Source: Candidatus Methanomethylophilaceae archaeon (GTDB lineage: Archaea; Thermoplasmatota; Thermoplasmata; Methanomassiliicoccales; Methanomethylophilaceae). From it: a stretch of DNA of 64,000 nucleotides. The stretch lies in assembly GCA_944320495.1 (NCBI GenBank), contig CALUHR010000013.1, positions 320,001 to 384,000 of the forward strand, in the 5' to 3' direction. Position numbers and translations under genes: made by a program. Positions 5,123 through 60,436 of the stretch are shown here, in pieces; the first letter of the stretch is position 1, and each line of letters opens with the position of its first letter. The notes under the pieces are model-generated. The model ran no database searches. It had not been told where the DNA came from and saw nothing but the letters and a program-made list of their open reading frames with translations.

Positions 5123-5752
5123 ATGTCCCCTTCGAAGATCGTCTGCATAGGCTGGAACTACCGCTCCCATGTGAGGGAGCTGGAATCGGAGCTTCCGAAG
5201 GAACCGACCGTGTTCCTGAAGCCGCCCAGCTGTCTCATAGGAGATGGGGAGGGGATCGTCATACCCGCGGGCGTCACGAACGTGCAGCACGAGGTGGAGC
5301 TGGCCCTGATCTTCGGGAGGAGATGCAAGAACGTCTCCGAAGAGGATGCACTCCTGTGCATCTCCGAGGTGGCGGTGTTCAACGATGTGTCGGCTAGGGA
5401 CATGCAGACCGCCGCCCGGAAGGCGGGTAACACATGGGACCTGAGCAAGGGCATGGACACCTTCGGCCCCATGTCGGACCCAGTGCCCGTGGGGTCCGTC
5501 GGTGACCTGCAGGACCTGGAACTGACCCTAACCGTCAACGGGGAGGTCAGGCAGCGCGGGAACACCTGCGACATGATATTCACGGTCCCGGAGCTCATCT
5601 CATACGTGACAAGTTTCATGACGATGGAGCCCGGCGATATCCTCATCACCGGGACCCCGGAGGGGGTGTCGGAGATCAGGCCCGGCGACGTCGTGCGCGC
5701 CGAGATCGAGGGTGTGGGCGTCGTCACCAACCCCGTGGTTTCGGGCGCCCGA
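5123..5752 (+). CDS. Fumarylacetoacetate hydrolase family protein; inferred to end at CGA 5750-5752
   Basis: KIVCIGWNY, FLKPPS, HEVELA and GDILITGTPEGV motifs; GGAGG upstream of ATG 5123. The domain ends at ...TNPVVSGA and is followed by CGA; the standard code fuses it to purS. Confidence 0.88.
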
Positions 5753-5782
5753 CCCTGTCGACGGCATGCCGTCCAGGCGCAC

Positions 5783-5791
5783 CCTTATTAT
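5783..5791 (+). promoter_or_regulatory. TATA-box candidate for purSLQ
   Basis: CCTTATTAT, an AT-rich island about 25 nt upstream of the purS ATG. Confidence 0.5.
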
Positions 5792-5815
5792 GCGCGCGCG
5801 TCATGGAAGGTCATC

Positions 5816-6055
5816 ATGACAGTCGTCGAGATCAGAATCGAGCTCAAAAAAGGGGTCGCCGACCCGGAAGGCAAGAACACCAGGAAGACGCTGGAGTCAC
5901 TGGGTTTCGAGGGCATAACCGACGTCAGGACCGTCAAGCTGTTCGAGGTCGAGTCGGAGCTCCCCGCGGACGAGGCCAAGGCCCAGGCCGAGGAGATGTG
6001 CAGGAAGCTGCTCGCGAACCCCGTCATCCAGAACTTCAGGGTATCGGTGAGATGA
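5816..6055 (+). CDS. purS: Phosphoribosylformylglycinamidine synthase subunit PurS
   Basis: LKKGVADPEG and MCRKLLANPVIQNF motifs; directly upstream of purL. Confidence 0.95.
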   Translation: MTVVEIRIELKKGVADPEGKNTRKTLESLGFEGITDVRTVKLFEVESELPADEAKAQAEEMCRKLLANPVIQNFRVSVR

Positions 6056-6056
6056 G

Positions 6057-8380
<2,324 letters not shown>

Positions 8381-8384
<4 letters not shown>

Positions 8385-9199
8385 GGCCCGAGGATGTCAG
8401 GGTGTGCGTCATGCGCATCGAGGGAACCAACTGCGAGGACGAGATGGCCAGGGCGTTCAACGCCGTCGGCGCGGACGCCGAGAAGGTCCATCTCAAGCAG
8501 CTCATCGGCCAGGCGCCCTCCGGGCTCCGCAGGAGCCTCGAGGACTACGACGTGCTGGCCTTCCCCGGCGGATTCTCCGCGGGGGACTACGTCCGTGCGG
8601 GTGCCCTGTTCGCCGCGAGGATCAAGGCCTCCCTCGGACCGCAGATCAAGGCCTTCGTCGAGGCCGAGAAGCCCGTGATCGGGATCTGCAACGGATTCCA
8701 GATCCTCGTCGAGCTGGGGCTGCTCCCCGCCTTCGAGGGCACGATGACAGACTGCCCCACCGCCGCGCTGTACACCAACGACTCGGGAAGGTTCGAGTGC
8801 AGGCCGACGGTCCTGAGGAACGACAACAACGGCAAGTGCCTCTTCACCTCCGAGATCCCGAAGAGGAAGACGCTCACGATTCCGTCCGCTCACGCGGAGG
8901 GGAAGCTCATGAGCAGCGACCCCGACTTCGTCCAGAGGCTGGAGGACAACGACCAGGTCGTCTTCAGGTACGTCCGCCCCGACGGGTCCGACGCCGACTA
9001 TCCGTGGAACCCCAACGGGTCCCCTTCGGACATCGCCGGCATCTGCAACCCGGCAGGCAACGTCCTGGGCATGATGCCCCATCCGGAGCGTGTGATCGAC
9101 AGGTTCACGCACGCCGATTGGACCAGGGGCTACGTGACCGAGGAAGGTGACGGGAAGTGCATCTTCCAGTCGGTCATGAAGCATCTCGAGAGGATGTGA
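8381..9199 (+). CDS. purQ: Phosphoribosylformylglycinamidine synthase subunit PurQ
   Basis: GTNCE, PGGFSAGDY, GICNGFQ and GMMPHPER motifs. Confidence 0.97.
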
Positions 9200-9301
9200 G
9201 AACGGGCGGGGCACCACCCCGCCCACAACGCCCCATGCGGATCCCGGAGCGGGTCCGCGGGGTCTTCTATGATGTTCGGACTTCAGAACGGTCCTTCGCG
9301 A

Positions 9302-9958
9302 TCGGACGTTGACCTTCACGTCCACCCTGTCGCCGTCCTCGAGGCTGAGGGTCCTGCGGAGGTGGTACTGGCAGATGATCTCGATGATGTCCGCGTAGTG
9401 GGACCTCTCGGGGACCACGATGGCGCAGTCGATGTTGCGTATCCTCGCCTTGTAGGCGACGACGTTGCCGAAGCTGCGGCCGTTGTCCGTGAATCCGTTA
9501 ATCGGCACCCCGGCCACGCTCTTGATGACGTCGAGCTTCCCGACGTCGTCCGGGTCCACATGGATGTTCAGGGTGCCCTCGAAGGGCTCGAACCCGAGTT
9601 TGGACTTGAACTGATCCAGATAGCCGGGCTGGCAGATGTAGTAGCCGCCCTCGCCCATCCCCGACTGCACCGCGCCGTGGATGGTGATGTGGTCCGTGAG
9701 CTCGAAGATCCTGCGGTACTCGTTGTACTCCTTGCGCAGGTCGTCTATCCCCTTCTGGGTCAGCTTGATGCGCTGCCTGCGGGCGCCCAGGTCCCTGACG
9801 ATGTACTTCTCCTCCAGGAGCTCCAGAATCCTCTTGGAGGCAGATTGCTGGCTCATCTCGAGCGCTTCGCCGAGCTCCCTCGAGGAGATGGCGATGTAAT
9901 CGTCCATGGCTCCAAGCAGGGCGAGCTTCCTGAGTGCGAAGGAGTACTTCTCGTCCAT
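9302..9958 (-). CDS. ribK: CTP-dependent riboflavin kinase with N-terminal winged HTH; inferred to end at CGA 9302-9304
   Basis: HTH (SQQSASKRILEL), VQSGMGEGGYY, PFEGTLN, VVPERSHY and LRRTLSLEDGDRV motifs; in-frame CGA follows ...DVKVNV. Confidence 0.92.
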
Positions 9959-10027
9959 GAGCGGACGGATGCCATGATACGATAAAAACAATGGGGGAGG
10001 GGCTCGTCGCCCCTCGTTGGAACGGTT

Positions 10028-10399
10028 TCAGATGACCCTGTTGGAGTCGACCCACTTGGAGACGTGGGGGCAGGCGGCGATGGCCACGAGGACGACCGCG
10101 ATGACCAGCAGGATGATGCTGATCCAGAGCTCGGTCGCTCCGTAGATGGCCGCGATGATGGTCACGGCTCCGGCGAGACCGGAGAGGACCACGACGGTGT
10201 TGCCGCAGACGGGGCTGTACTTGGTGAAGGTTCCCGCTGCCGCGAAGAACATGACGGCGACGAGCATGTTGATCCCGACGAGGTACATGCTGTCGATGTC
10301 GGCTTTCCAAGAGGCCGCCATGGCGGCGAGGGCGATGACGCCTCCGACGAATCCCAGGGCGGTCCCGATCTTCATGTTGTTGGGTACGGTGTTTGCCAT
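10028..10399 (-). CDS. Small four-helix membrane protein, unknown function
   Basis: Four hydrophobic segments; codon style like neighbouring genes. Confidence 0.75.
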   Translation of the reverse strand: MANTVPNNMKIGTALGFVGGVIALAAMAASWKADIDSMYLVGINMLVAVMFFAAAGTFTKYSPVCGNTVVVLSGLAGAVTIIAAIYGATELWISIILLVIAVVLVAIAACPHVSKWVDSNRVI

Positions 10400-10411
10400 T
10401 TTCGAGCCTCC

Positions 10412-11014: not shown

Positions 11015-11089
11015 GCGGTCGGGAAGGACGTGCGCGATTTAATATTGATTGCGCCCGTACAGGGGAGCCAGAGCATCAGGGGGAAGCGC

Positions 11090-11854: not shown

Positions 11855-11942
11855 TCCCACCCTCCGGTCCCGGTTCAGAGGTCCGATGCGACGTCGGTCG
11901 CGGAAAAACGATGCCGGGGTCTCCCCCGGCGTGAAAGTGATT

Positions 11943-13148: not shown

Positions 13149-13271
13149 ATGCTCTCCCGGAGGTCACGGAAGAGGTTCGTTATAACCGTTGCCCATTTTA
13201 AGTAAGGTTAAGAGCGCCCGTGCGCGGCTCTTCCGCGAAGTAATATATCGCTCTCCGTTGTTGGAGTGCGC

Positions 13272-20794: not shown

Positions 20795-21450
20795 TCGCAC
20801 CCGATCCTGGAGGGCAGGCGACGCGGCATCATCGCCTCCGACGTTCCAGAACATCCTGAGCATATCGCTGAGGCCTGTCTCCAGGCTCTTCCTGAGTCCC
20901 ATCCTCTTTGCATCGGAGCAGATTCGAATAAGGTTCTTGATGATGTCTTCGTCATCCTGGACGAGTCCTATGCTGATCGGTCCGTTATTGGTGTTGAGCA
21001 CTCTGTCGTGACGTTCAGGTCGAACACGATGCGCGGATCCAGGCGATTCTGGATGATGTCATCTATGAGATCGAACATGCCGTTGTAATCGTCCGCCGAC
21101 TCGTCGGTGACGCCCCAGTCGCACTTCTCCATGCAGAACATCAGGAAATCCAGGAAGTCATAGGCCGCCTCGTCTCCGCCCAGTTTGATGAAGCTCTCCA
21201 GATCCCGGCAGAACTTCTCGGCCATGCGTTTGCGGAACATATCTCTCTCGCATCCGCAAAGGCACTGGTTGATGCGGATGCGGGTCTCCTCCCTGTCCAG
21301 CAGGGACCCCTCCTTCGCGAGCTTCTCCAGTGTCTCCATCACGGTGTCGTAGCCCAGCTTCTCGGCGAGGCAGATTACGATCCTCTTGAACATGCAGTGG
21401 TTCATTGTGTTCGTGATATCCTCAATAACAAGTGCATCACAGTAATCCAT
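20795..21450 (-). pseudogene. Helical hypothetical protein split by a frameshift near 21003-21010; probable end at CGA 20795-20797
   Basis: Two overlapping protein-like ORFs (20968-21450 and 20630-21001) join if one base is restored at GTC ACG AC AGA GTG CTC. Confidence 0.5.
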
Positions 21451-28554: not shown

Positions 28555-28631
28555 TGGTGGGCCCTGCCGGATTTGAACCGACGGCCATCTGGTTATGAGC
28601 CAGACGCTCTACCTAGCTAAGCTAAGAGCCC
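28555..28631 (-). tRNA. tRNA-Ile2 (anticodon CAU), CCA encoded
   Basis: Cloverleaf GGGCTCT...CTGGCT-CAT-AACCAG...GGTTCAAATCC...AGGGCCC-ACCA. The GGGC acceptor start fits archaeal Ile2 better than Met. Confidence 0.88.
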
Positions 28632-28717
28632 GTTGAGGCACCCATATCGGGATTTCATTAAAAACATGTCGGACGAGACATGACGCGAAGCGGTGAAGGA
28701 TGATGAAAAAGGGAGAA

Positions 28718-28793
28718 TGGCGCCGCCACACGGATTTGAACCGAGGACCTTGTGATTAACAGTCACACGCTCTACCTGCTGAGCTACGGCGGC
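28718..28793 (-). tRNA. tRNA-Asn (GUU), CCA encoded
   Basis: GCCGCCG...GTGACT-GTT-AATCAC...GGTTCAAATCC...TGGCGGC-GCCA. Confidence 0.95.
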
Positions 28794-33474: not shown

Positions 33475-34020
33475 TCGGACCCAGATCGCGTGGCGGCGGC
33501 GCATGTCGTCCTCGGAGATCTCCTCGCGGGACATTATCTCGCTGACGATGCCGTCGAACAGCAGCAGCGCGGAGTCCTCGAAGACGGTCCCCAGGGGGGC
33601 CACCCTGTGCAGTCCCTCGCCCTCGGGAACGCTCATGACCAGGGACACGTCGGAGACGCGGGTCAGCGGGCTTCCGCTGGTGCCCGTTATGCAGAATATC
33701 TCGGACCCTATGCGACGGGCGATTTCCGCTGTCTGCACAACCGACGACGTCCTGCCGGTGTAGGATATGAGGAGGGTGAGGTCCTCCTTCCCGATTATGG
33801 GGGTGGTCATCTCGCCCACGAAATGCACGTCGAGCCCGAGCTGGACGAGACGCACCGCGAACATCTGGCCCACCAGCCCGGAGCGGCCGGACCCGTAGAC
33901 GAAGACCTTGCGATGGCTCAGGATCCCGGAGACTAGCTCCTCCCTGGCGTCGGCGTCGACCGAGCGGACTGCGGTCCTGCAGGTGTCCAGCAGGGTGTCC
34001 AGGTCGTCCAACTCACTCAC
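33475..34020 (-). CDS. hxlB: 6-phospho-3-hexuloisomerase (SIS domain); inferred to end at CGA 33475-33477
   Basis: FVYGSGRSGLVG, ISYTGRT and APLGTVFEDSALL motifs; ends MRRRHAIWV then CGA. Confidence 0.9.
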
Positions 34021-35814: not shown

Positions 35815-36497
35815 CCGCCGAGCAGGATGCCAGGGAGAGGCGCGTCGCATGGGCGATGCTCATAGGATGTCCCCTGTCCTTCATGTTCATCTCCGTGTTC
35901 TCGTTCCTGGGCGTGGCGCCCGGGATCGAGGCAGGGCATCCTCCGATATACCTCATCGCGACTTGCATCGCATGGGCGATAGTGTCCGTGTTCCTGCCGG
36001 CCCTCAGGCTGCTGAGGCTGGTCTCCCTGCCCTCGGCGTTCCTGTTCGTGGTCTACGCGAACATGTACTTCTACGTGGTCTCGCTGAACGTCGGGCTGTA
36101 CCTGAACGTCAGCTGGTGGGGGGACATGGGGCATGTCATCTCGTCCACCATCGTCACCATGATCGTCTTCCTGGCACTGTGCATCATGGAGGTGTACTCG
36201 CCCGCCCACGTGACCTTCGGCAGGAGGGGAGGGATGGCGGCGATGCTGTTCTTCGTCGCCCTCAGCTTCGGCGGGATCTGGGAGATGATGGAGGGCTTCG
36301 CCGACTTCGCTGGGGGCGGATCCTACATGGTCTACGGTGCCAGCGACACCATGGGGGACCTCACCGCCGACCTGATCGGCGTGATCATCGTCACCGCCTG
36401 CGCCTACTGGTACCTCGGCAGGAGGGCCCCCGCCGACATCTGCTCTTCCATACGCTTCGGGAGGGGTGCTTTCGTTGTCAGGGAAGACGTCGAGCGA
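35808..36497 (+). CDS. Membrane protein (WDxxxH / ExxE / DTMxDL motif type); inferred to end at CGA 36495-36497
   Basis: WWGDMGH, GGIWEMME and DTMGDLTADLIG resemble a putative membrane metallohydrolase family; the protein-like sequence ends at VREDVE-CGA. Confidence 0.75.
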
Positions 36498-40993: not shown

Positions 40994-42349
40994 GTGACAT
41001 ATCTCACGGTCCCGTTCTTCACCTACATATTCGCGGTGCTGCCGGTCTGGCTGCCCCTGCTGGCAACGGACCTGGTGGCGCTGTACATCCTCATATTCAG
41101 GGAGAGGCACGACCCGAGGACGCTGATATTCTGGGTGGCGGTGGTGTTCATACTGCCGTTCCTAGGCTTCCTCTTCTACCTGCTGTTCGGCTGCACGCTG
41201 TTCGTCAGACGGTGGGGCTCGCGGAAGGAGGCATCCGACAGGAGGTTCCTGTCGGGCGTCTCGGAGGAGCCCCCGGAGGACGGCCGCAGGCTGTCCAACG
41301 TGCTCTCCAGCGCCGGGGCCGACGTGTACACGTCCGGGAACGGCGTCAGGCTGTTCTGGGACGCTCCGGACTCCTGGGGGACCTGCATGGACGCCATCCT
41401 CGCTGCCAGCCGCAGCGTGCACATCGAGACCAACAGGCTCCCGGACGACCCGTCCCTGAGGGACATGCTGGCCTCCAAGGCGCGGGAGGGAGTCGACGTC
41501 CGCATCGTCACCGGGACCCGCGGGTTCGGGAGGACCCCCGGTCTCCGCGAGCTCAGGCGCGCGGGGGTCAGGTACACAACCTTCCACGGATGGTTCCTCT
41601 CTACGTTCTCGCTCAGGGTCGAGAGCCGCTGCCTCAGGGATCTCCTCGTGGTCGACGGCTCTGTGGCGTTCACCTGCCTCGGGTCGTCGATAGAGGTCGA
41701 GGGCAGGGCCGCATCCCGCCTGGACCGCAGGTTCCTCGCCGACTGGGCGTTCGCATCCGGGGAGGCCGTCGACGTCCACGAAGACGTCCAGTCCTCCGAC
41801 GGCGGGTGCGGGGTGCAGGTGGTCCCGTCCGGTCCCGATTCGTCAGGGATGGCCATGCTCCACGGGTACTCCGAGATAATATCGGAGGCGAGGGACAGGC
41901 TGTACCTCACGTTCCCGTTCCTGATCCCCAACGACGAGATGTACAACGCCATCAAGCAGGCGGTCATCGCGGGCACCGACGTCAGGATACTCATCCCGTC
42001 GGTCTGCAGGCACTGGTACCAGCCCTGGAACTCCCTTGCCGCCTCCAACCCGCTCATGCAGGCCGGCGCGAGGGTGTACTTCTCTGACACGGCGTCGGTG
42101 AGATGCCTCGCCGTGGCGGACGGCAGGGTGCTGGCCATGGGGACCGGCGTCTTCAACTCCAGGTCCCTGTGGGCAGACTACGCGGTGAACGTGGTCGTCA
42201 GGTCGGAGGATGTGGCCAGGGACGCCGAGAGGGCGTTCATGGCCGAGCTCGACGGTGCGGCGGAGTGCCTCCCGGAGGAGTACAGCCGCAGGTCCTTCGC
42301 GGATCGCATCAAGATTGCGGTCGCCAGGATGCTGATGTTCCTGAACCGA
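40994..42349 (+). CDS. Cardiolipin-synthase-like PLD-fold membrane protein with degenerate HKD motifs; inferred to end at CGA 42347-42349
   Basis: PLDc_N (RHDPRTLIFW...LPFLGFLFYLLFG), YTSGNGV, TFPFLIPN and GTDVRILIP motifs. Confidence 0.85.
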
Positions 42350-44610: not shown

Positions 44611-45135
44611 ATGGCATGGCCGTTCGGTAAGAAGGATGAGAAGCCGGTCGAGAACAAGCTGCCGGAGCAGTCCGAGAGGCAGTACAACCTGTTCTGGATG
44701 ATCCGCATGAGCCCGTTCGCCGACCGCTCGGACGAGGAGGTCCAGCAGGCCATCGACAGGAAGATCGCGGAGGTCGAGAGGACCCTGAGGACCCAGCCCG
44801 TCGAGATGGTCCGCGTCAAGAGCGAGAGGAAGGTCGAGAAGCTGAAGGCGCTCTCCGGTGACAGCGCAGCCATCGCCGCCGAGAGGGACGAGGCCATCCT
44901 CCACTTCAACAGGAACATGATCGAGGACAACGGAGGTTCCGTCCCCACCGATCCCGAGAAGATCTCGGCCACCGTGTCCAGGGAGGGGTGGGCCGACGGG
45001 ACGGGGCTGGTGGACGTCGATGGGATGCCCCACTGCCCCAGATGCGGCTACATCAACAGGAAGACGAAGGTCTGCGTCAACTGCGGATCGAAGCTGAGGC
45101 ACCGAGTCCTGCGATGCCTCGAGAAAACGATTTAA
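44611..45135 (+). CDS. Hypothetical protein with C-terminal Zn ribbon; may end at CGA 45103-45105
   Basis: CPRCGY...CVNCGSKLRH, then CGA; the first canonical stop is TAA at 45133. Confidence 0.7.
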   Translation: MAWPFGKKDEKPVENKLPEQSERQYNLFWMIRMSPFADRSDEEVQQAIDRKIAEVERTLRTQPVEMVRVKSERKVEKLKALSGDSAAIAAERDEAILHFNRNMIEDNGGSVPTDPEKISATVSREGWADGTGLVDVDGMPHCPRCGYINRKTKVCVNCGSKLRHRVLRCLEKTI

Positions 45136-45166: not shown

Positions 45167-45171
45167 GACGA

Positions 45172-45730: not shown

Positions 45731-47083
45731 ATGGATCCGTTCAGGCTGCAGGACCACGGCACGACGCCGGAGAGGGAGGCTGTCGCAGGTTTCACCACGT
45801 TCCTCTCGATGGCGTACATCCTGGTCACCGTGCCGGGGATACTCTCATCGCCGGACGGGATGCAGTGGGGCGCCGTGTTCCTGGCGTCGGCGATATCGTC
45901 GGCCGTCGGCACCCTCGTCATGGCGCTGTACGCCAACGTGCCGTACGCGCTGGCCCCAGGCCTCGGGATGGCCTCGTTCCTCACGGTGACCGTGTGCGGT
46001 GACATGGGATTCACCTGGCAGGAGGGTCTGTCGATCGTCTTCATATGTGGACTCGTGAACATCGCCATAACCCTGAGCAACGTCCGCCGCCTGATTATCG
46101 CGGCCATACCCCGCAGCCTCCAGCTGGCGATATCCGGGGGCATAGGGCTGTTCCTGGCCTACGTCGGACTGCTGGAGTCCGGCCTCCTGGACCTGTCGGG
46201 GAGCACCCCCGCCCTGGGCGATCTGGCCAGCCCCCAGGTACTGCTGTTCCTCGTCGCCCTCGTCGTGTCGATGCTCCTGTACATCCGCAACGTCCGTGGG
46301 GCGCCGATCATCGCCATCGCGGTCATCGCCCTCCTGGGCATCCCGATGGGCGTGACGCACATGGGTGACAACGTGGGCTTCGGAGAGGCAGTGTCCCAGC
46401 TATGCTCCTCCTTCGGGGCGATCTTCACATCCGAGGGCATACCGGCGCTCTTCTCCGACACCAGCAGGATACTGCTGGCGCTGGTCGCCATCGTATCATT
46501 CAGTCTGGTGGACACGTTCGACACCATCGGGTCGTTCGTGGGGACCGGGAGGAAGGCCGGCATATTCACGGAGGAGGAGATGACGACCGCCGGCGATGGC
46601 GGGTTCAGGACGCGGATGGACCGCGCCCTGGTGGCCGATTCCGTCGCGACCTCCGTGGGGGCGGTGTTCGGCACCTCGAACACCACGACGGTGCTCGAAT
46701 CGGTGGTGGGGATCTCGCAGGGCGGCAGGACGGGTCTGGCATCCGTGGTGACGGCCGCGTGTATCCTGCTCATAATGCCGGCGGCGGCACTCATCAGCGT
46801 CATACCAGTGCCGGCCTATTCCGCGATCCTGGTGATGGTGGGCGTGATGATGCTCTCGTCGTTCAGGAGCATCGACTGGGAGGACCTGGGGGAGGCGGTC
46901 CCGGCGTTCTTCGCGGGGCTGTTCATCGCCCTCTGCTACAACATCAGCTACGGGATCGGATTCGCGTTCATCGCCTTCTGTCTGACCAGGGTGTTCCTCG
47001 GCCGTGCCGGGGAGGTCAGCAGGCTGATGTGGGTCGTCTCAGCCCTTTTCGCGGTGATGTTCGCGCTGCAGGCGATCGTGCGA
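45731..47083 (+). CDS. NCS2/AzgA-family purine permease; inferred to end at CGA 47081-47083
   Basis: AGFTTFLSMAYI, ALAPGLG, DTFDTIGS, TSNTTTVLES and QGGRTGL motifs; ends ALQAIV then CGA. Confidence 0.92.
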
Positions 47084-47095
47084 TCGCGAGAAGCC

Positions 47096-48145
47096 TCGCC
47101 TGCGCTTCCTTCCGGACATCGCCACATAGGCGAGCAGATGTTCCAGCTGCACCCTCTCGAGGGGCATGCCCATGCCCCCGGACCCGCACTGGGCTATGCG
47201 GAAGTCCGTCTCCCCGACCTTGTCCAGGAGCCTCACGGCCTCCGCCCCCTCCAGCCCGAGCTCCAAGGCCTGCCTCTGGATCTCCGTGGCGATCTCGCGG
47301 CAGGTCATGCCCTCGCCGATGAGCAGCCCGTCCAGCGCGTCCCTGGCGGCCATGAAGTCGCCCGAGCGTGCCTTGGAGAGCATGTCCCTGACCCCGTTGG
47401 AGGAGCGGGTCTCGGACACGGCGAAGACCGCGTCGAGGTCCACGCGGCCTCTGGTCACGGCGGCCGCCTGGAGCATGGCCATCGCCCTCCTGATGTCCCC
47501 GTCGGCGGCCATGGCGATACCGTCCGCCGCCCCGCGGTCCAGTTCGACGCCCTCGGACTCTGCGACCTCGACGATGCGCTTCGAGAGGTCGGCGCGGGGT
47601 ATGGGGACGAACCTGACGACCCCGCACCTGGACCTCACGGGGTCGATTATCATGGACTGGTGGTTGCAGGCGAGGATGAACATGCAGTTGCGGGAGTAGA
47701 CCTCCATGGTGCGCCTGAGGGCCTCCTGCACCTCCTTGGACATCGTGTCGACCTCGTCGATGAAGACGACCCTGAACCTGACTCCGTCTATCGATGCCGT
47801 GGACACGAACTCCTTGATTCTCCAGAGGGGGCTGTCCATCGTCTTGGTGACGGTCCTGACGGTCGTCTCTCCCTCGTCATCGGTCTCCGTGACGGTGACC
47901 TCGCGTTTCTTGGTGAGGTCGGAGGCGTCGATCTCCAGGAAGTTGCCCTCGATGTTGCCCTCCAGGACCTCCCTCGCGACGATGAGCGCGCAGGTGGTCT
48001 TGCCGGTCCCCGGGGGGCCCGCCAGGAGGAGGTGCGGCACGCTCTGCTGGGACGTCAGCGGTCTGAGCCTCTCGACGGCCATCGGCTGGCCCACGATCCC
48101 GTCCAGGGATGTCGGCCTGTACTTCTCCATCCAGACGGACTCCAT
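47096..48145 (-). CDS. rfcS: Replication factor C small subunit paralogue; inferred to end at CGA 47096-47098
   Basis: [34 protein letters not shown] and GDIRRA motifs. Confidence 0.92.
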
Positions 48146-48239: not shown

Positions 48240-49040
48240 ATGAACGGCATGGACGACATCGCGGAGGATCTGAGGGTGGTGTCGGACGGGACGAGGTTCT
48301 CGATCCTGGCCATCCTCCTCAGGCACGACATCTGCTCCGGGGCCCTGGCACGCAGGCTGGGGATATCCGAGGCGGCCGTGTCCCAGCACATGAGGGTGCT
48401 GAGGGAGGCCGGTTTCGTCACTCCCGTCCGCCGCGGGTACTTCACCCACTACGAGGTGGACCGCGACAGGATCCGCATGCTGGCACATGCTCTGGAGGCC
48501 ATGTCCCTGAGCGACCGCGCCCCATGCGACCCGGTCCTCGAGGGATGTGACAGGAAGGGCCGCGGGAGCTGCCGGTCGGCGGTCCCCGGTGCCGGATGTC
48601 CCAGGATGGAGGGCGGTGAGCCCCCTTGCCCGGGGTGCCGCCGCTGCATGACAGAGAGAAGGTCGGGAATCATGAGGGTAGCAGCCACATACGAGAACGG
48701 GGAGGTCTTCCAGCACTTCGGGAGGACGCAGCAGTTCAAGGTCTACGATATCGAGGACGGGAGGGTGGTCTCGTCCGCGGTCCATGGGACCGGCGGCAGG
48801 GGTCACGGCGAGCTCATCAATGTGCTGAGGGAGCTCGATGTCTCCGCGCTCATCTGCGGGGGCCTCGGGGGCGGTGCGATGCAGGGGCTCGAGGCTTCGG
48901 GCATACGTGTCGTGCCGGGATGCTCCGGGGATGCGGACGCCGCCGTGCAGGCGTTCGCCGAGGGGAGGCTGGAGGGACCCACGGGGCCCACCTGCGACCA
49001 CCACGGCGAGGGTCACCAGTGCTCCTGCGGGAGGCACCGA
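48240..49040 (+). CDS. ArsR-family HTH, Cys-rich linker and NifB/NifX (FeMo-co-binding-like) domain in one reading frame; inferred to end at CGA 49038-49040
   Basis: ArsR motifs (TRFSIL, SQHMRVLREAG); NifX-like VFQHFGRT...LICGGLGGGA from ATG 48672; His/Cys-rich tail CDHHGEGHQCSCGRH. Confidence 0.82.
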
Positions 49041-51239
49041 TCGCCCGTAGAACGGGACCGAGTCCCAGCCGGTGCGGCGCCTCCTTATGCGCCGGCCGGC
49101 GTCCTCGTACCCGTCCATGACCTCCTTGGTCACGGACGGCATCACGAGCCCCAGCGCCGCATCGAAATGACGCTGGCACACCTTCGCGGCCCCGGGGTCC
49201 TCGCGGTAGGCGGCCAGTCCCGCCTCGCGGCACACCGAGGCGAGGTCCGCGCCGGTGTAGCCGTCGGTGGACCTCGCGACCGCATCCAGGTCCACGCCGT
49301 CCAGAGGCATCCTCTTTGTGTGCACCGCCAGTATGCTCCTGCGGGCCCTCTCGTCGGGCTTCCCCACGAGGACGAGCCTGTCGAACCTGCCGGGCCTCAG
49401 CAGGGCCGGGTCTATCATGTCCGGGCGGTTGGTGGCGCCCATGACGGTCACGTTGCGCATGCCCTCGACCCCGTCCATCGAGGTGAGGAGCTGGGCGACG
49501 ACCCTCTCCCATGCGGAGCCGTCCCCCGCTCCGCGGATGGGGGCGATCGAGTCCAGCTCGTCGAAGAATATGATGCAGGGGGCCATCTGCTTGGCCCTCT
49601 TGAAGATCTGACGGATGGCGCGCTCGCTCTCGCCCATCCACTTGCTGGCCATCTCGGGACCGTTGACCGAGATGAAGTTGGTCCCGGACTCGTTGGCCAT
49701 CGCCTTCGCTATCAGGGTCTTGCCGGTCCCGGGCGGTCCGTAGAGCAGGACCCCCTTCCCCGGCTCGATGCCGAGCCTCTCGCAGGGGTTGCCCTCCTCG
49801 GTGGACAGCACCTCGCGGATCTGCGCCCTCACATCGTCCAGGCCCCCGACGTCCTCCCAGGTGACCTTGGGGATCTCGACCAGCACCTCGCGCATGCCAC
49901 TGGGCTCCACGTCGGACAGCGCAGCCCTGAAGTCGTCCATGGACACGCGCATGCTCTCGAGGATCTCCGACGGGACCTTCCGGTCCAGGTCGAACTCCGA
50001 CATGCGGGCGCTGAGGCAGTGCATGGCGGCCTCCCTGCAGAGGGCGGCCAGGTCGGCGCCCACGAAACCCTGGGTCATGGAGGCGAGCGCGTCCGGGGTG
50101 ACGTCCTCGGTCAGTGGCATCTCCCTCAGGTGGACGGAGAGGATGTCCGCCCTCGCCTTCCTCCCGGGAATCCCGACCTCGATCTCCCTGTCGAACCTTC
50201 CAGGGCGTCTCAGCGCCGGGTCGATGGAGTCCTCCCTGTTGGTGGCGCCGATGACTATGACGTTCCCCCTGTCCCCGAGGCCGTCCATCAGGGTGAGGAG
50301 CTGGGCCACCACCCTGCGCTCCACCTCGCCAGAGACCGCGTCCCTGCTGGGGGCGATGGAGTCTATCTCGTCCAGGAACACGATGCTGGGTGCGCTCTCC
50401 TCCGCCTTCTTGAATATCTCCCTCAGGCGCTCCTCGCTCTGGCCGTAGTACTGGCCCATGATCTCCGGTCCGCGGACCGAGAACAGGGTGGCGCCCGACT
50501 CGTTGGCGACCGCCTCGGCCATGAGGGTCTTCCCTGTGCCGGGCGGTCCGTAGAGGAGTACGCCCCTCGGGGCCCCTATGCCCAGGCGCTCGAAGAGCTC
50601 CGGATGCTTCAGGGGGAGCTCTATCATCTCACGGATGCGCTTCAGCTCGTCATCCAGGCCGCCCACGTCGTCATAGGTGATCTGATGGCCGGTCTGGCTC
50701 TTCGCCGTCTCACGCTTGCGGGGACCGTCCCTGACGACAACCTTGGTGGATTCCGTGACGATGACCGGTCCCTTCGGGACGGTGGATGCGACCGAGAACG
50801 TGGAGCGGTTGCCCATGAGGGCGATGTTCGGCACGATGATGTCCGTGTCCGCCACGAGGGGGCGGTTGAGGAGCCCCCGGAGGAAGATCTCCTCGATCCC
50901 GTCCTCGAACCTGATGCGCTTGCCCTCGGGGATGTTCGGGGAGAGGACGACCTGCTCGGCGGGGGCGGGGTCGCATCTCCTCACGGTGACGCTCTCGTCC
51001 ACGCTGACCCCCGCGTTGGTCCTGGTGAGGCCGTCTATCAGCAGCAGGCCGCGGCCCTCGTCCGTCTGGTCGCCCTTGAAGACCTTGGCGACGACGGTGC
51101 GCTTCCCGACGATCTCGATGGTGTCCCCCAGCTCCAGACCGAGGGCCCTGCGGGACTCGGAGTCCATCCTAGCCCTCCCATATCCCGCCTCGGACTGGGA
51201 CCTGGCCATCGCGACTTTCAGGACGATCGAATCGGACAT
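49041..51239 (-). CDS. cdc48: CDC48/VAT AAA+ ATPase; inferred to end at CGA 49041-49043
   Basis: N-domain plus two AAA modules (GPPGTGKT twice, FLDEIDS, FFDELDS, RPGRFDR); ends WDSVPFYG then CGA. Confidence 0.95.
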
Positions 51240-51269: not shown

Positions 51270-52076
51270 TCATCGCGGTCCCGATCGCTCCCGCAGGCTT
51301 TCCATGGCGTCCGCCGCGTGGGCCCTGAACAGGTCCCTGAACTCGGGGTACTCGCCCATGCCGCGAACGATGCAGCGGGGGTTGTACCCGGCCGCGGCCA
51401 TGACGCTCCTGAGGGAGTCCTCCTCGTCCCCGGCGAGGTCGTTGTTGGCGTGGTCCCCGGCGACGATCATGAGCGGGAACATCGCGACATCCTTGCGATC
51501 ACAGCCCTCCATGAGGCCGAGGGTGCTGTCGTAGTCGGGGAAACCCTCCACCGTCGTGACGTAGACGTCCCTGCGGCCGGAGGCGATCAGCCTGAGCTGG
51601 AGCTCGCTGTACGCCGAGTTCGCGAAGTGGGTGGTGCCGTGGCCCATGAGCACCATGGCGTCGCCTTCCGCCTCGGGGCCGTATGCGGCCCCGATCGCCT
51701 CGATGAGGGCGTCGAAGTCCTCGGAGGTCGTCAGGAGAGGCCTCCCGACGGTGATGGCGTCGAACCTGTCTCTGCGCCTCTCCACCTCCTCCATCATGTA
51801 GTCGTACTCGACGCCGTTCATCACGAGCGTGGGCTGGACCACCACGGTCCCGTAGCCCTCGTCGGCCAGCCTGTCCAGGGCGGCATCGACGAAGTCGACG
51901 TGGATGCCCCTCTTCTCGAGGATCCTTATCACCGGACGGCTGGTGAACGCCCTCCTGACATCCCATCCGGGGAAGGATTCTGCGATGTGCCTCTCGATGG
52001 CGCCGATGGTCTTCTCGCGGGTATCATCGTAGCTCGTCCCGTAGCTGGCGACGAGGATGGCCTTCTTTTCCGACAT
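51270..52076 (-). CDS. cbiK: Sirohydrochlorin cobaltochelatase CbiK; may end at CGA 51285-51287
   Basis: LVASYGTS, RRAFTS, MGHGT, TVEGFP, PLMIVAGDHANND and GMGE motifs. Confidence 0.93.
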   Translation of the reverse strand: MSEKKAILVASYGTSYDDTREKTIGAIERHIAESFPGWDVRRAFTSRPVIRILEKRGIHVDFVDAALDRLADEGYGTVVVQPTLVMNGVEYDYMMEEVERRRDRFDAITVGRPLLTTSEDFDALIEAIGAAYGPEAEGDAMVLMGHGTTHFANSAYSELQLRLIASGRRDVYVTTVEGFPDYDSTLGLMEGCDRKDVAMFPLMIVAGDHANNDLAGDEEDSLRSVMAAAGYNPRCIVRGMGEYPEFRDLFRAHAADAMESLRERSGPR

Positions 52077-53346: not shown

Positions 53347-53362
53347 CAAACGCTTCCATGCC

Positions 53363-53384
53363 CCGTCCTTTGGGACGGGGCCTC
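53363..53384. terminator. Hairpin after aspC
   Basis: GCCCCGTCC-TTTG-GGACGGGGC, a 9-bp stem starting about 16 nt after the stop; coordinates approximate. Confidence 0.45.
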
Positions 53385-53565
53385 CCGCACCGGGCCTCCC
53401 GGGAACACCCGCCAGGTCCGGTGCCACACCTTCTGCTGGCACATATTCCGCGGATGCCGGAGCGCTCCCCATCCATCGCAGGCTCTCGCCTGGTTGTCGC
53501 GCGCGCTACTTATTATAGGATGCCCCCGATGACGACCCATCTGCCCTAGGGCATGAGGGATCAAT

Positions 53566-54630: not shown

Positions 54631-54632
54631 AG

Positions 54633-56213: not shown

Positions 56214-56611
56214 TGGGCTTGGCAGTCATCACGATCAGCGAGCTGACCTCCGCCATCAGGAACAGCATCGACAGCAGCTCCAGGGAGATGGAGGAGGAGG
56301 AGGCGTACGACCTCGCCCACAGGGTCCTGAACTTCTTCGGGTACTCGGACAGGATCATCGACAACATCCTGGAGCCGGAGGACCGCGACGCCTTCTACAT
56401 GCTGGAGGACGCCGGCATCCTGACCACCGAGAGGGAGGAGACCACCCTCTACGACGGCAGGGAGTGGAGGATCCACTACTGGCTCTTCCGCAGGGAGAGG
56501 ATCGACCAGCTGATCAACCAGGGCCCCCGCAGGACGGAGGCCCGGGTGGAGGCCGAGTTCGACTACGACGAGCTGCCGGACGACATCTGGCAGCGCGGCT
56601 CCCAGGAATGA
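56210..56611 (+). CDS. Conserved Thermoplasmatota protein (DUF6015-like)
   Basis: VLNFFGYSDRIIDNILEPEDRDAFYMLEDAGILTTEREETTLYDGREWRIHYW. Confidence 0.8.
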   Translation: MMGLAVITISELTSAIRNSIDSSSREMEEEEAYDLAHRVLNFFGYSDRIIDNILEPEDRDAFYMLEDAGILTTEREETTLYDGREWRIHYWLFRRERIDQLINQGPRRTEARVEAEFDYDELPDDIWQRGSQE

Positions 56612-58488
56612 GGATGGCCGTCTTCCCGTACCCCTACCGTCCCGGCCAGAGGGAGCTGGTCTCCTTCATAGACCGCTCCGCCCGGGACGGCATGTGTCCC
56701 GTCGTCGAGGCGGGGACGGGCACCGGGAAGACCGTCTCCTCCCTGGCCGGCATGCTCCCGCTGGCCGGGGAGCGGGACCTCAAGATAATCTATCTGACGC
56801 GCACGAAGTCCCAGCAGGCGCAGGTCCTGCGGGAGTGCTCCGCCATCGGCGGGGTCGTGTGCATCGGCCTCCAGGGCCGCTCCGCCTCCTCCTGTCCGAT
56901 GATGAGGGACGACCCGGACCTCAGGTCAGGCACCCCGGAGGAGATCTCGAAGCTGTGCTCCGAGCTGAAGCGCAGGACCGAATCCGGATGCGCCTGCCCG
57001 TACTTCGCCAACCTCGAGGGTGCGGACGAGGAGCACTGGCTCTCCGTCCTGTCGCAGGAGGGCATGACGCCGGAATCGTCCTCCGAGGTGTGCGAGGAGG
57101 CGGGACTGTGCCCGTACGAGCTCCTCAAGCACCTCCTGCCGAGGGCGGACGTCATCGCCGCCTCGTACCCGTTCATGTTCGTGCCGCCCATACTCGCGAG
57201 GTTCGAGGAGTGGGTGGGCGTGCCGGTGGAGAGGATGCTCGTCATCGCCGACGAGGCCCACAACCTCCCCGACTACCTGCGCGAGGTGCAGACCTACGAG
57301 TACAGCAGATGGTCCATGGACATGGCCGAGAAGGAGTCCAGGGAGTTCGGGGACCGGGAGATCCACCAGGGGATCACCGTCTCGGACGTGGCCGCCGTGC
57401 TGAGGGAGATACTGGAGGCCACGGCCAAGGAGTACCTGATCGACGAGGACGGCATCATCCCCCCGCACTTCGTGGAGGACGAGCTGATGGCCCGCCTCGG
57501 GGTGACGTCGGTCGGCCTCGGGAGGATCTCGAGGGGCCTGACGGACCTGGGGGACGTCATCGAGGAGCAGAGGAAGCAAAGGCGCAAGCTGCCCCGCTCC
57601 TACATCGGGATGATGGGGAGGTTCCTCGACGCGTGGATGTCGGAGGAGGACCCCAGCTGCGTCCGCCTGGTTATCGGAGGCACGAACCCCTGCTTCCAGT
57701 CCTACTGCATGGATCCAGCCCCGGCGGCGGAGCCGCTGAACGCGTGCCACTCGGCGCTGCTGATGTCGGGGACGCTGGAGCCTCTGGAGGACTATGTACG
57801 GGAGATGGGCATCGAGAGGCCGGCGATCCGCCGCCAGCCCAGCGCGTTCGACCCTGGCCATCTCCTCACGCTGTACACCGACAGGGTGTCGATGAAGTAC
57901 GAGGAGAGGTTCCTCGAATCCAACTATGCGGCGCTGAGGTCGCTCCTCCTCGACACCGTGAACTCCGTCCGCGTGAACACGGCGGTGTTCTTCCCGTCCT
58001 ACGACCTGATGGACAGGATGGTGTCCGAGGGCATCGTCGACGCCCTGGGCAGGGACGTGTACTTCGAGCGGAGGGGCATGCCGCAGGGGGAGCTGATGGA
58101 GACCTTCGACCAGTTCAGGACCTCCGAGGGGAGCGTCCTCTTCTGCGTGACCGGCGGCAGGATGAGCGAGGGCCTCGACTTCCCGGACAAGGCCCTGGAG
58201 CTCGCGGTGCTGATCGGGATACCGTATCCGAAGCCCACGGCCAAGTCCAGGGCCATGGTGCGCTACTACGACCGCCGCTTCGGGGACGGGACGAAGTACG
58301 TGACGAGGATCCCGGCGGAGCGCAAGATGCGCCAGTCCATCGGCCGTCTGATAAGGTCGGAGACGGACCGCGGGGTGGCGGTCATACTGGACCGGAGGGT
58401 CGTCTCCATGGATCTCGGGGCGATGCTCTGCTCCGACATACCCTCGGCGGTGGCCGCGTTCCTCTCCGAAGGCCGGTCGCGACGATAG
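56608..58488 (+). CDS. xpd: XPD/Rad3-like Fe-S DNA helicase; ends CGA-CGA-TAG
   Basis: AGTGTGKT, Fe-S Cys cluster (SCP, LC, CPYF, LCPY), ADEAHN, SGTL, SEGLDF and QSIGRLIR motifs. Confidence 0.93.
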   Translation: MRMAVFPYPYRPGQRELVSFIDRSARDGMCPVVEAGTGTGKTVSSLAGMLPLAGERDLKIIYLTRTKSQQAQVLRECSAIGGVVCIGLQGRSASSCPMMRDDPDLRSGTPEEISKLCSELKRRTESGCACPYFANLEGADEEHWLSVLSQEGMTPESSSEVCEEAGLCPYELLKHLLPRADVIAASYPFMFVPPILARFEEWVGVPVERMLVIADEAHNLPDYLREVQTYEYSRWSMDMAEKESREFGDREIHQGITVSDVAAVLREILEATAKEYLIDEDGIIPPHFVEDELMARLGVTSVGLGRISRGLTDLGDVIEEQRKQRRKLPRSYIGMMGRFLDAWMSEEDPSCVRLVIGGTNPCFQSYCMDPAPAAEPLNACHSALLMSGTLEPLEDYVREMGIERPAIRRQPSAFDPGHLLTLYTDRVSMKYEERFLESNYAALRSLLLDTVNSVRVNTAVFFPSYDLMDRMVSEGIVDALGRDVYFERRGMPQGELMETFDQFRTSEGSVLFCVTGGRMSEGLDFPDKALELAVLIGIPYPKPTAKSRAMVRYYDRRFGDGTKYVTRIPAERKMRQSIGRLIRSETDRGVAVILDRRVVSMDLGAMLCSDIPSAVAAFLSEGRSRR

Positions 58489-58520
58489 TTTTAGAAACAG
58501 GTGTCCGCAATCAGCCGTCC

Positions 58521-58790
58521 ATGGAATTCCAGGTCGACGAGGACGTCAAGAAGATGATAGCGGAGCATGACTGCGACTTCCGCATCTGCACCGCATGCTA
58601 CGGTCCGGCCCTGGTCACCACGGCCGTCAAACCCCCGAAGGAATCGGACATCAAGGTCCCGGTCGGGAACCACACGATCTTCGTCTCGCGCTACCAGGCG
58701 CCGTACGTCTCCCGCATAACGATGGACATGGTCTACAGCGAGGACGAGATCGACTCCTGTCCCGCCTTCTACACCAGGCGCCGCTACTGA
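58521..58790 (+). CDS. Small conserved protein with CxxC (HesB-like / CC-motif)
   Basis: DFRICTACYGPAL...PPKESDIKV; family assignment tentative. Confidence 0.7.
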   Translation: MEFQVDEDVKKMIAEHDCDFRICTACYGPALVTTAVKPPKESDIKVPVGNHTIFVSRYQAPYVSRITMDMVYSEDEIDSCPAFYTRRRY

Positions 58791-58803
58791 CCCCGGTCGG
58801 CTC

Positions 58804-59145
58804 TCATGGGTCCGGCGGGGTCTCACCGTTCTTCGACAGGACCCCGTCGAACGCGTGTCTCAGGTTGTCCATGTCGTCCAGCGGGATCGGCGGGACGTCC
58901 TTCGACCTCTTGAAGAAGCAGGGTCCGAACAGCGGGCAGTGTTCCACCCCGTTGACATCCGTGAACACGTTCCCCTCCGCGATCTTGATTGCTCTCCTCT
59001 CAGTGCGTGTCCTGGTGAAGAGCGTGGTCAGTGATTTGGCCTTCTCGTTACGACCGGATTTCACCTCTATCGTCGTGACCTCGCTGTCCATGTAGGTCAG
59101 GATCCTTCTCTCCATGGAATCGATCTGGGTAAGATCATATTGCAA
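58804..59145 (-). pseudogene. C-terminal fragment of an AAA+/DUF4143-type ATP-binding protein
   Basis: IEVKSGRNEKAKSL, a PD-(D/E)xK-like terminal motif; no ATPase part and no clear start. Confidence 0.6.
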
Positions 59146-59189
59146 CTTTCATGAGGGAATATGCCATTGAAATTGCAACTTTCATGAGG
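59139..59189. repeat. 18-bp direct repeat ATTGCAACTTTCATGAGG x2
   Basis: Identical copies at 59139-59156 and 59172-59189 (33-nt period) in an AT-rich patch. Confidence 0.85.
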
Positions 59190-59243
59190 AAATGAAAGGT
59201 CGGACCGATGCCTCCCCGGCGCATCGACGCCGGTGAAGCGGGT

Positions 59244-59873
59244 TCAGGCGCCGTCCAATCTGGCCGCATCGACCGAGGCCCTGGCGAGCGCATCGATGTC
59301 GACGGCAGCGCTCATCTCCGCCACCTTGGCGGGGTCCGCCTCCGTGACGGGGTGGATGGGAACGATGGAGCATCCGTGACCCGGTCTGATGGATATGTCA
59401 TAGGTCCCGATGTCCTTGGCTATGGCCTCGATCTCGAGCTTGTCCATGCCGATGAGCGGTCTGACGACGGGGAAGTCGAGACCCTGGTTCTCCGCGCGTA
59501 TGTTGCGGAGCGTCTGCGAAGCGACCTGTCCGAGCGAGTCGCCCATGACGATCCCGGAGCATCCGAGCCTTCTCCCCAGCTCCCTCGCCGTCCTCTGCAT
59601 GACGCGCTTGCACATGACGCACTGATAGGGATGGGGGCAACCATCGTGTATCGCGTCCTGTGACGGCGCGTGGGGGGCGATCCAGAGCGGGAGCTCCTGT
59701 CCGGTGGATTCCCTGAGCGCGTCTGCGATGTCCCTGACGTCGTCCAGCTGGACCGGTCCGGAATAGGGGGTGTTGTCCATGTGGAGGAGGACGACCTCGG
59801 CTCCCACGGAGCACATTCTGTGGACGGCGACCGGCGAGTCGATCCCGCCGGACATCAATGCGATGAGCCTCAT
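59244..59873 (-). CDS. thiI: ThiI-like PP-loop ATPase without THUMP domain
   Basis: LMSGGIDSPVA, GDSLGQVASQT, RPLIGMDKLEI and IGTYDIS motifs. Confidence 0.85.
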   Translation of the reverse strand: MRLIALMSGGIDSPVAVHRMCSVGAEVVLLHMDNTPYSGPVQLDDVRDIADALRESTGQELPLWIAPHAPSQDAIHDGCPHPYQCVMCKRVMQRTARELGRRLGCSGIVMGDSLGQVASQTLRNIRAENQGLDFPVVRPLIGMDKLEIEAIAKDIGTYDISIRPGHGCSIVPIHPVTEADPAKVAEMSAAVDIDALARASVDAARLDGA

Positions 59874-60436
59874 CGGAGGACCACGTCGCCGTAGTCGTCC
59901 GCCAGCTTCCTGGGAATGGCGTACCTGCACTCGGGGCAGTACAGGCCCTCGCCCTTCTTGTCGCGGACCATCTCGGTCTTGCACTTGGAGCAGAGCGCCC
60001 TGATGCATCCGAGGTGCTTGTCCTTGGTGGCGAGCTGGAGGGAGGGCTTGGTCTCGGTGACGACCGCCCTGATGTAGTCGCCCTTGCGGAGCTCCTTGGA
60101 CACGTCGTCGGTGTACTTGGGGGAGATCTTGGACACGTGGAGGGTCGCGTAGGTCTCCCCTCCCACGTTCTTGCTGGTGCCCTCCTTGGCCACGACGTCC
60201 GCGGTGGCCATGGTGCTCCTGATGTCGGCCACGACCGCGTAGACGACGTCCCCCTTCTTCAGGATGTTAGGGGGGTTGGGGCAGACGACGGATGCGGTGC
60301 ACTCGTCGTCGTCCAGAACGAGGGTGCCGACCTGGGACGCGTAGACGGTACCGTTGTCCGCGAAGGTCCCCTCTCCCGCGGCGTACTCCTCTTCCACGGC
60401 GACCTCGTCGCCGGGCATGACGAACCTGGAATCCAT
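59870..60436 (-). CDS. csl4: Exosome subunit Csl4; ends CGA-TGA
   Basis: VMPGDE, GDYIRAVV, LGCIRALCSKC and CPEC...RKLADDYG motifs. Confidence 0.93.
   Translation of the reverse strand: MDSRFVMPGDEVAVEEEYAAGEGTFADNGTVYASQVGTLVLDDDECTASVVCPNPPNILKKGDVVYAVVADIRSTMATADVVAKEGTSKNVGGETYATLHVSKISPKYTDDVSKELRKGDYIRAVVTETKPSLQLATKDKHLGCIRALCSKCKTEMVRDKKGEGLYCPECRYAIPRKLADDYGDVVLR

Follow-up and report, generated by a model that had tools for sequence, protein, structure and literature searches.

Our data indicate that CGA, an arginine codon of the standard genetic code, behaves as a stop codon in an archaeon of the family Methanomethylophilaceae, and the sequence evidence makes it highly probable that CGA marks the functional end of proteins in this organism by one mechanism or another. 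The window from which the analysis started, a stretch of 64,000 nucleotides, corresponds to C13:320001-384000 of a genome (G000; 1.77 Mb in 14 contigs, 62% GC) that is congeneric with 'Candidatus Methanoprimaticola sp. MG2' (G013). An earlier note on the window had proposed CGA as a stop, and the codon statistics, the interchange of TGA and CGA among congeners, independent assemblies, back-up stops and a CGA in the gene for the archaeal release factor aRF1 all indicate that CGA acts as a stop and not as ordinary arginine. The proposal has to be narrowed, as CGA is not exclusively a stop and three or four true internal CGAs are found.

In order to see where CGA stands in genes, we trained a codon log-likelihood model on G000 itself and located the coding part in every stop-to-stop open reading frame (ORF), counting a CGA as internal if there was coding signal in the 40 codons on both sides. 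Only 7 internal in-frame CGAs were found in about 440,000 codons, compared to 413-2985 for other rare codons (CTA 413, TTG 431, CGG 579, CGT 1109 and AGA 1161). At the transition from coding to non-coding sequence CGA was found 260 times, while these other codons were found 24-150 times each. This is the pile-up at coding ends and near-absence inside genes that the earlier note had predicted. In an unbiased segmentation, in which CGA was scored as neutral, there were 188 genes whose coding signal stops at least 25 codons before the standard stop; a CGA lies within 4 codons of the coding end in 104 of them (55%), and every other codon does so in at most 17%. TGG, the other GC-raising transition from TGA, showed no enrichment at coding ends genome-wide. 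The codon at the coding end could be classified for 1113 genes and is CGA in 235, TGA in 836, TAA in 31 and TAG in 11. The next standard stop lies 10 or more codons beyond the CGA in 159 of the 235 CGA-ended genes, and 25 or more codons beyond it in 112. Among the standard stops TGA makes up about 94% and TAG ends only 11-19 genes, which is as expected for the pyrrolysine-using Methanomassiliicoccales lineage.

CGA is therefore almost absent from conserved sense positions, the more so as 3-4 of the 7 internal cases are junctions between genes in the same frame (a pair of FMN reductases, a CfbC/CfbD-like pair, and an ankyrin gene with the gene that follows). The three or four true internal CGAs include Arg78 of aRF1, one codon within a Flavodoxin_4 domain, and one in the linker of a GmhA (SIS)-GmhB (HAD) fusion (G000 C13:193618-194718; L136). 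In this fusion the HAD motif follows the linker CGA by four codons and has no start codon, and the CGA could either be a genuine sense codon or silence the second domain. Under translation table 11, genes joined only by a CGA appear as false same-frame fusions, for which we note Pelota with a LeuA/NifV-like protein, a NifH-like with a NifD-like protein (CfbC/CfbD-type), two FMN reductases, and FAH with PurS (C1:20926-23502, C5:79781-81964, C1:9080-10741 and window 5039-6055).

The C in the terminal CGAs is genuine DNA and not an artefact of assembly or base calling, because Logan contigs and independent public assemblies, Illumina-type ones among them, agree on it. The window is contained in public metagenome runs of chicken and bird guts, which come from four or more studies. 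Logan contigs of one run (X1) are identical to the window over the 20 kb compared, except for one C>G and one G>C, and the pieces listed span the CGA sites at 33475, 42347, 47081/47096 and 51285; a strain about 98% identical from a second study (X2) has no change at 33475-33477. The read-through Cdc48 ORF (1003 amino acids) is present in public protein collections, where it falls in a cluster of 30 members drawn from NCBI, ENA and Logan assemblies; 14 of the 15 members listed have this length. An RNA-library run (X15), whose library may contain DNA, gave low-depth contigs, one of which overlaps site 33475.

Comparison with other members of the genus places CGA at positions homologous to the stops of relatives. 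In the fetched parts of seven congeners, the codon opposite a terminal CGA of G000 is TGA in 25 cases and CGA in 10, and the codon opposite a TGA stop of G000 is TGA in 266, TAA in 12 and CGA in 6. The junction of the ArsR-NifX gene and cdc48 reads CGATCG in the window and in G018, TGATCA in G004, G011 and G007, and CGATCA in G014. Cdc48 ends with PFYG in 15 genus genomes, followed by TGA in 11 and by CGA in 4. This PFYG end presumably resembles an HbYX-type tail, and an HbYX-type C-terminus must be free for docking on the 20S proteasome. G018 is a 95% relative of G000, and the comparison of their tails by substitution phase and indels covers just 2 CGA-ended genes. CGA-ended genes with long tails are also found in G010, where roughly one gene in four is of this kind, and as single cases in MG2 and the complete genome G015.

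The avoidance of CGA inside genes reaches further than its use at gene ends. Every genus member sampled has next to no internal CGA (0-2 per 60-400 kb), and the same holds for four other genera of Methanomethylophilaceae, while a sister family shows ordinary CGA use (78 per 160 kb); the outgroup G024, with 40% GC, was left out of the comparison since the coding test failed there. CGA would thus have been purged from ORFs first and widely, and only the species richest in GC (about 62% GC) would have seen its use at gene ends spread. In congeners of lower GC content, CGG too is strongly depleted.

The sequence around the terminal CGAs has features of its own. The base at +4 is U in 60% of terminal CGAs compared to 29% of TGA stops (p=1e-17), and the commonest terminal hexamer is CGATCG; at the internal CGAs (3-4 cases, too few for statistics) it is C or G. 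Within the five in-frame codons after a terminal CGA, another CGA occurs in 25%, compared to 12% in the other two frames (p=3e-8), and a standard stop occurs in 21%, compared to 5-7% in the other frames, whereas genes ending with TGA show almost no such excess of back-ups. CGA ends 34% of the genes in the lowest quartile of codon adaptation and 5.8% of those in the top quartile. Abutting convergent genes can share a palindromic double terminator, which is CGATCG at 7 gene pairs here and TGATCA in relatives (window 49038-49043); selection for U at +4, or a mutational effect at a methylated motif, are possible reasons for the joint change of both halves. Genome-wide, GATC is 2-fold over-represented and CTAG occurs at 0.09 of expectation.

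The earlier note had raised the loss of tRNA-Arg(UCG) as a way to leave CGA unread, and this part did not hold. ARAGORN recovered the full set of five tRNA-Arg genes. The one for tRNA-Arg(UCG) lies outside the window, at C13:413317-413390, and carries an A at the Arg-identity position 20 of its D-loop (in our own numbering). Orthologues exist throughout the genus (L141-L152, L281, L287, L288 and L294; a covariance model located those of G008, G015 and G007), with compensatory changes in four pairs of the anticodon stem. An unread codon through tRNA loss is thus ruled out by the conserved tRNA-Arg(UCG). The cognate tRNA is kept, and it is unusual in its anticodon stem alone, where the fifth pair is mismatched in every case, leaving a stem of 4 base pairs, with the mismatch at 31-39 in the G000 group (A.A, C.A or U.C) and at 27-43 in the G008 group, which also has C33 in place of the near-universal U33. 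In contrast, the tRNA-Arg(UCG) of the outgroup G019 (L197), which uses CGA normally, has an ordinary stem of 5 base pairs. A 4-base-pair anticodon stem has been linked to altered decoding (PMC13092985), and the tRNA of this genus may be a deliberately weak competitor for CGA. The earlier note held that a tRNA-Arg(UCG) together with normal CGA use would speak against a stop; the tRNA is there, but CGA is nearly absent inside genes.

G000 has one aRF1 and one Pelota gene, and Pelota itself ends at a CGA and then runs in the same frame into the LeuA/NifV-like gene. The gene for aRF1 (410 amino acids, TGA stop) has a single CGA, which encodes Arg78. This residue aligns with R81 of human eRF1 and is Arg in all 28 Methanomassiliicoccales compared. 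Its codon is CGA in 15 of the 16 genus genomes, with neighbouring codons varying synonymously; the other Arg codons of aRF1 in the genus are AGG, CGC or AGA, and outgroup families have CGC, CGT, CGG, AGA or AGG at Arg78. The local context is always U-CGA-C and the ORF is continuous through the CGA. Across the family, CGA is found at Arg78 in about 45 of 80 loci, and CGA-poor genera that do not have it there have a single aRF1 CGA at codon 11 or 25. In UBA480 (L203) the stop of aRF1 itself is a CGA (codon 411, TGA in the others), with another CGA at 413. With internal CGA at about 1.6e-5 per codon, one in a 410-codon gene would be expected in less than 1% of genes. Because a codon this rare is conserved in the very gene whose product terminates translation, the aRF1 CGA is the strongest pointer to aRF1 as the putative reader of CGA and to an RF2-like feedback. 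Contigs carrying this archaeal aRF1 with 75-92% identity also occur in several public bins with bacterial labels (L202, L204, L205, L214, L218, L221, L222 and L249; named, among others, as Ruminococcus sp., Bifidobacteriaceae, Lachnospiraceae, Prevotella hominis, Dialister hominis and Bacteroidaceae), and these are probably mis-binned.

Among the mechanisms put forward in the earlier note, an aRF1 with relaxed specificity fits best. We infer a role for aRF1 as reader, for the tRNA as a weak competitor and for the aRF1 CGA as a regulatory element, and the full aRF1-based mechanism is one that we favour with modest confidence. CGA would then be mainly a termination signal in this lineage, with the single aRF1 accepting CGA besides UGA in the ribosomal A site and out-competing a retained but weakened tRNA-Arg(UCG) with its 4-base-pair anticodon stem. 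Termination at CGA would be weaker than at UGA and dependent on context, with U at +4 (often CGAUCG) favouring it, and CGA ends would be backed up by further in-frame CGAs or standard stops; highly adapted genes would avoid them. CGA would have been purged earlier from the reading frames of the whole genus and much of the family, and GC pressure (T to C) would then have converted TGA stops to CGA in the GC-richest species. The CGA at Arg78 of aRF1 stands in a context (U-CGA-C) that should favour termination only weakly, and it could couple the synthesis of aRF1 to the balance between aRF1 and tRNA-Arg(UCG), much like the in-frame UGA of bacterial prfB.

Several observations weigh against CGA as a stop read by aRF1. 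A cognate and apparently chargeable tRNA-Arg(UCG) is present, and at least two CGAs (those in aRF1 and Flavodoxin_4) have to be decoded as sense if a normal product is to be made, so that CGA is no pure stop. The complete congeners G008 and G077, as far as sampled, avoid CGA and have the aRF1 CGA but have no or almost no CGA-ended genes, so that something else may lie behind the avoidance of CGA. Slightly deleterious stop losses would produce the same expression gradient. Lastly, in the aRF1 N-domain the x of the YxCxxxF motif is Arg (Y-R-C), aligned with L123 of yeast eRF1 and as in the L123R variant, but NIKS and YxCxxxF are otherwise intact and Y-R-C is also found in outgroup families that use CGA as Arg, and thus it does not pin down an aRF1 change that explains a C in the first position. 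Changes beside NIKS that are specific to the genus or family (F56Q, S59A-type and R68M in human numbering) are candidates only, and the GTS-loop Gly (human G31) is replaced by Ser in G000 and G018 but not in the CGA-stop users G010 and G002.

Of the alternatives, the one that survives best, though we consider it unlikely, is that CGA is effectively unassigned and that ribosomes stalled on it are resolved by rescue (aPelota/ABCE1, or peptidyl-tRNA drop-off and Pth2), in which case the protein would end at the codon before CGA and there would be no true reassignment. Such a state would agree with the purging of CGA from ORFs throughout the genus, even where it is missing from gene ends, and with the abnormal anticodon arm of the tRNA (the 4-base-pair stem, and C33 in the G008 group), and any end signal of low efficiency would account for the back-up stops and for the expression gradient. 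Rescue would, however, be costly for about 20% of all genes, and it leaves unexplained the strong preference for U at +4 and the conservation of a CGA specifically in aRF1. Classic unassigned codons are also missing from the ends of ORFs and have no tRNA, whereas CGA is abundant exactly there and its tRNA is present and, from the compensatory changes, under purifying selection.

Considerably less probable is the editing of CGA to UGA in mRNA, also raised in the earlier note, by a sequence-specific C-to-U deaminase that prefers CGAUC and leaves the standard code in place at the ribosome. Such an enzyme would destroy the CGA that aRF1 keeps invariant at an essential Arg, and the contexts of terminal CGAs are many rather than one motif, even if the context preference could be read as a recognition motif. 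The DNA is truly C where the aligned state in relatives is TGA, and the enzyme would entail avoidance of internal CGA, both as observed; yet we know of no C-to-U mRNA editing system in archaea. The enrichment of in-frame CGA back-ups, which parallels that of standard stops, is compatible with either an editing or a decoding model.

It could also be that CGA is ordinary arginine and that the genes in question are stop-loss variants driven by GC pressure, with long nonsense tails, or decaying pseudogenes, but this appears very improbable. The concentration of CGA-ended genes among poorly adapted genes, the existence of tRNA-Arg(UCG) and the extended proteins produced by public gene callers would all be accounted for. 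However, the loss is specific to CGA, as neither TGG nor other one-step derivatives of TGA show enrichment; CGA is almost absent within genes; in-frame back-up stops are enriched; and several species have the same state. The affected genes include those for Cdc48, the RFC small subunit, Pelota and CbiK, and at seven abutting convergent CGATCG pairs translation of each gene would run on through the antisense sequence of the other.

Finally, a systematic T-to-C miscall or assembly artefact, for example at a methylated TGATCA motif, is effectively refuted: many sites are indeed CGATCG where relatives have TGATCA, with the change symmetric on both strands, but 614 TGATCA still exist in the genome, T is not at +4 in 40% of terminal CGAs, the pattern is seen in several species-level genomes, Logan contigs from several short-read runs of different studies are concordant, and the same read-through Cdc48 ORF recurs in the 30-member cluster. 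A Nanopore or methylation miscall at TGATCA is ruled out likewise by the remaining TGATCA motifs, the independent short-read contigs and the many assemblies.

In the literature available to the search, no paper describes a CGA stop for Methanomassiliicoccales or Methanomethylophilaceae. To our knowledge, sense-to-stop changes so far are textbook cases of organelles only. In vertebrate mitochondria (translation table 2) AGA and AGG serve as stop signals, and they are reportedly read by mtRF1 according to recent structural work. The likeness to CGA is that of a sense-to-stop change in which an arginine codon is gone from reading frames and found at gene ends. The mitochondrial case differs in that it concerns an organelle with a minimal tRNA set and no cognate tRNA, with only two genes affected, whereas the archaeon has a free cellular genome with about 160-235 affected genes, a cognate tRNA that is kept, a few uses as sense and a clear effect of the 3' context. 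Codetta-type screens for code changes cannot infer new stops (PMC8629427).

Work on yeast has shown that eRF1/eRF3 releases peptide at CGA in competition with the tRNA and that L123R, L123F and L123Y enhance this release (Wada and Ito 2018, PMC7379694); a single CGA at the stop position is detectably read as a stop (PMC7379694). As would hold for the archaeon, a factor of the eRF1/aRF1 family competes with a poor tRNA at CGA, and an Arg at the x of YxCxxxF, which enhances the release in yeast, is the residue of this aRF1. In yeast, however, this is a minor side reaction on reporters, and in the archaeon a fifth of the genes would normally end this way. Y-R-C alone is also insufficient, being common to outgroups in which CGA is Arg. 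The likeness to bacterial prfB is that the factor's gene holds, early on and in frame, a conserved codon which the factor itself targets and whose reading competes with it. The programmed +1 frameshift of prfB, with its Shine-Dalgarno-like stimulator, is not found in aRF1, whose frame is continuous and in which tRNA-Arg(UCG), by reading through, would allow the whole protein to be made. With no frameshift, and completion via read-through, the putative regulation of aRF1 would be an analogue of prfB autoregulation and not a member of that system.

Context-dependent codons with dual meaning and tRNAs whose anticodon stems have 4 base pairs are known from Condylostoma and Blastocrithidia (PMC4967479; PMC13092985). 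Here too one codon appears to be both sense and stop depending on position or context, and the tRNA concerned has a 4-base-pair stem. The direction differs: in these eukaryotes stops turned sense, whereas the archaeal CGA is a sense codon turned mostly stop. In prokaryotes, CGA and CGG are reassigned to Trp in Absconditabacteria and CGG to Gln or Trp in Clostridia (PMC8629427). For two vent archaea with CGG reassigned to Trp, CGA is absent from domains and the possibility was raised that 'CGA may be a stop', although stop use could not be tested there (bioRxiv 10.64898/2026.04.02.715157). These cases share with ours the CGN box as a hot spot of code change, but the prokaryotic arginine-codon reassignments are sense-to-sense. 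The vent archaea are moreover unrelated and marine and do not have tRNA-Arg(UCG), while the gut clade has this tRNA and still reads CGG as Arg. Unassigned codons are CGG in Mycoplasma capricolum and AGA and AUA in Micrococcus luteus. As with CGA, compositional pressure and weak decoding drove them from reading frames, which is the starting point of codon capture. Unlike these codons, which are simply absent, the archaeal CGA is abundant at gene ends and aligned with the stops of relatives.

We give a slightly better than even chance that this is the first natural sense-to-stop reassignment in a non-organellar cellular genome, in the form of a genus-wide and context-dependent CGA stop read by aRF1, with a tRNA of 4-base-pair stem that would keep a few sense CGAs, feedback through the aRF1 CGA, and codon capture under way (from 0% to about 20-25% CGA-ended genes among species). 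If confirmed at the protein level, it would be the first sense-to-stop code change outside organelles. A prokaryotic case with graded intermediates among congeners would make the codon-capture and ambiguous-intermediate theories directly testable, and the congener Ca. Methanoprimaticola sp. MG2 is an isolate-type assembly with about 420x coverage. It would also show how an eRF1-type factor can relax first-base discrimination and would add an archaeal release-factor feedback loop. Standard gene callers would mis-annotate about a fifth of the proteins in these gut archaea as fused or as hundreds of residues too long, and such over-long products are already in public protein sets. Methanomethylophilaceae supply PylRS/tRNA-Pyl pairs for code-expansion work, and for this reason their decoding rules are of applied interest.

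Within the window, about 13 of some 58 genes end at CGA, and in-frame CGA occurs in none of the gene cores, which extends to the whole window what the earlier note had seen in the genes that it read. That note had listed 14 genes with a CGA at or just past their natural end. All 14 triplets are in frame at these positions and ten are convincing gene ends, judged by Pfam coverage (profile complete before the CGA) or by orthologues. Three (xpd, csl4 and the Zn-ribbon gene) are ambiguous, with a standard stop close by and a CGA that could be a C-terminal Arg (two of the 14 sites being simply a CGA beside a normal stop), and the hypothetical gene at 20795 could not be verified as a gene end. Tens to hundreds of codons separate the CGA from the next standard stop in FAH, ribK, hxlB, the Cls-like gene, NCS2, rfcS, ArsR-NifX, cdc48 and cbiK.

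The FAH gene (+ strand) has its terminal CGA at 5750-5752 (codon 238), after a complete FAA_hydrolase domain (33-234), and a second in-frame CGA at 5759-5761. Because a complete PurS domain (263-336) continues in the same frame, within one 338-residue ORF on the + strand (window 5039-6055), this CGA separates two genes. In ribK (- strand) the CGA at 9302-9304 is codon 230, following a CTP-dep_RFKase domain complete at 227, with a back-up CGA two codons on (9296-9298), and the ORF extends to 605 through 376 non-coding codons. The hypothetical gene with a CGA at 20795-20797 (- strand) is a 123-codon ORF, too short for the coding test, and matched no Pfam family. The hxlB-like SIS gene (- strand) ends with a CGA at 33475-33477 (codon 182), 2 nucleotides from the TGA of a convergent gene on the + strand. 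For the membrane protein (+ strand; CGA at 36495-36497) the coding signal stops exactly at 36494, another 217 codons follow with no standard stop, and the next gene starts about 13 nucleotides downstream in another frame. The PLD/Cls-like gene (+ strand) has its CGA at 42347-42349 (in CGATCG) as codon 452 of 526, with PLDc_2 reaching residue 415.

The Zn-ribbon gene (+ strand) has CGAs at 45103 and 45112 (45103-45114) and a TAA 10 codons on, and its end is ambiguous between a stop with back-ups and a short Arg-containing tail. The NCS2 permease gene (+ strand; CGA at 47081 and 47087, codon 457 of 836, Xan_ur_permease to residue 414) and rfcS (- strand; CGA at 47096-47098 and 47084-47086, codon 350 of 368, Rep_fac_C to 321) are convergent and end together within 47081-47098. 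ArsR-NifX (+ strand; CGA at 49038-49040, codon 267 of 1002) and cdc48 (- strand; CGA at 49041-49043, directly after the conserved C-terminal PFYG in an ORF of 1003) are abutting convergent genes that have the palindrome CGATCG (49038-49043) in common. In cbiK (- strand) the CGA at 51285-51287 is codon 288, after a CbiK domain complete at 283, and is followed by three codons, a CGA at 51273-51275 and then TGA; this end and the CGATCG of the cdc48 junction are both kept in G018. The ends of xpd (CGA CGA TAG, 58480-58488, + strand) and csl4 (CGA TGA, 59870-59875, - strand) have a standard stop directly after the CGA and are non-diagnostic. In addition, the genes for tRNA-Met(CAT) and tRNA-Asn(GTT) are adjacent on the minus strand at window 28555-28793, and the same adjacent pair is found in the congener G006 (L174).

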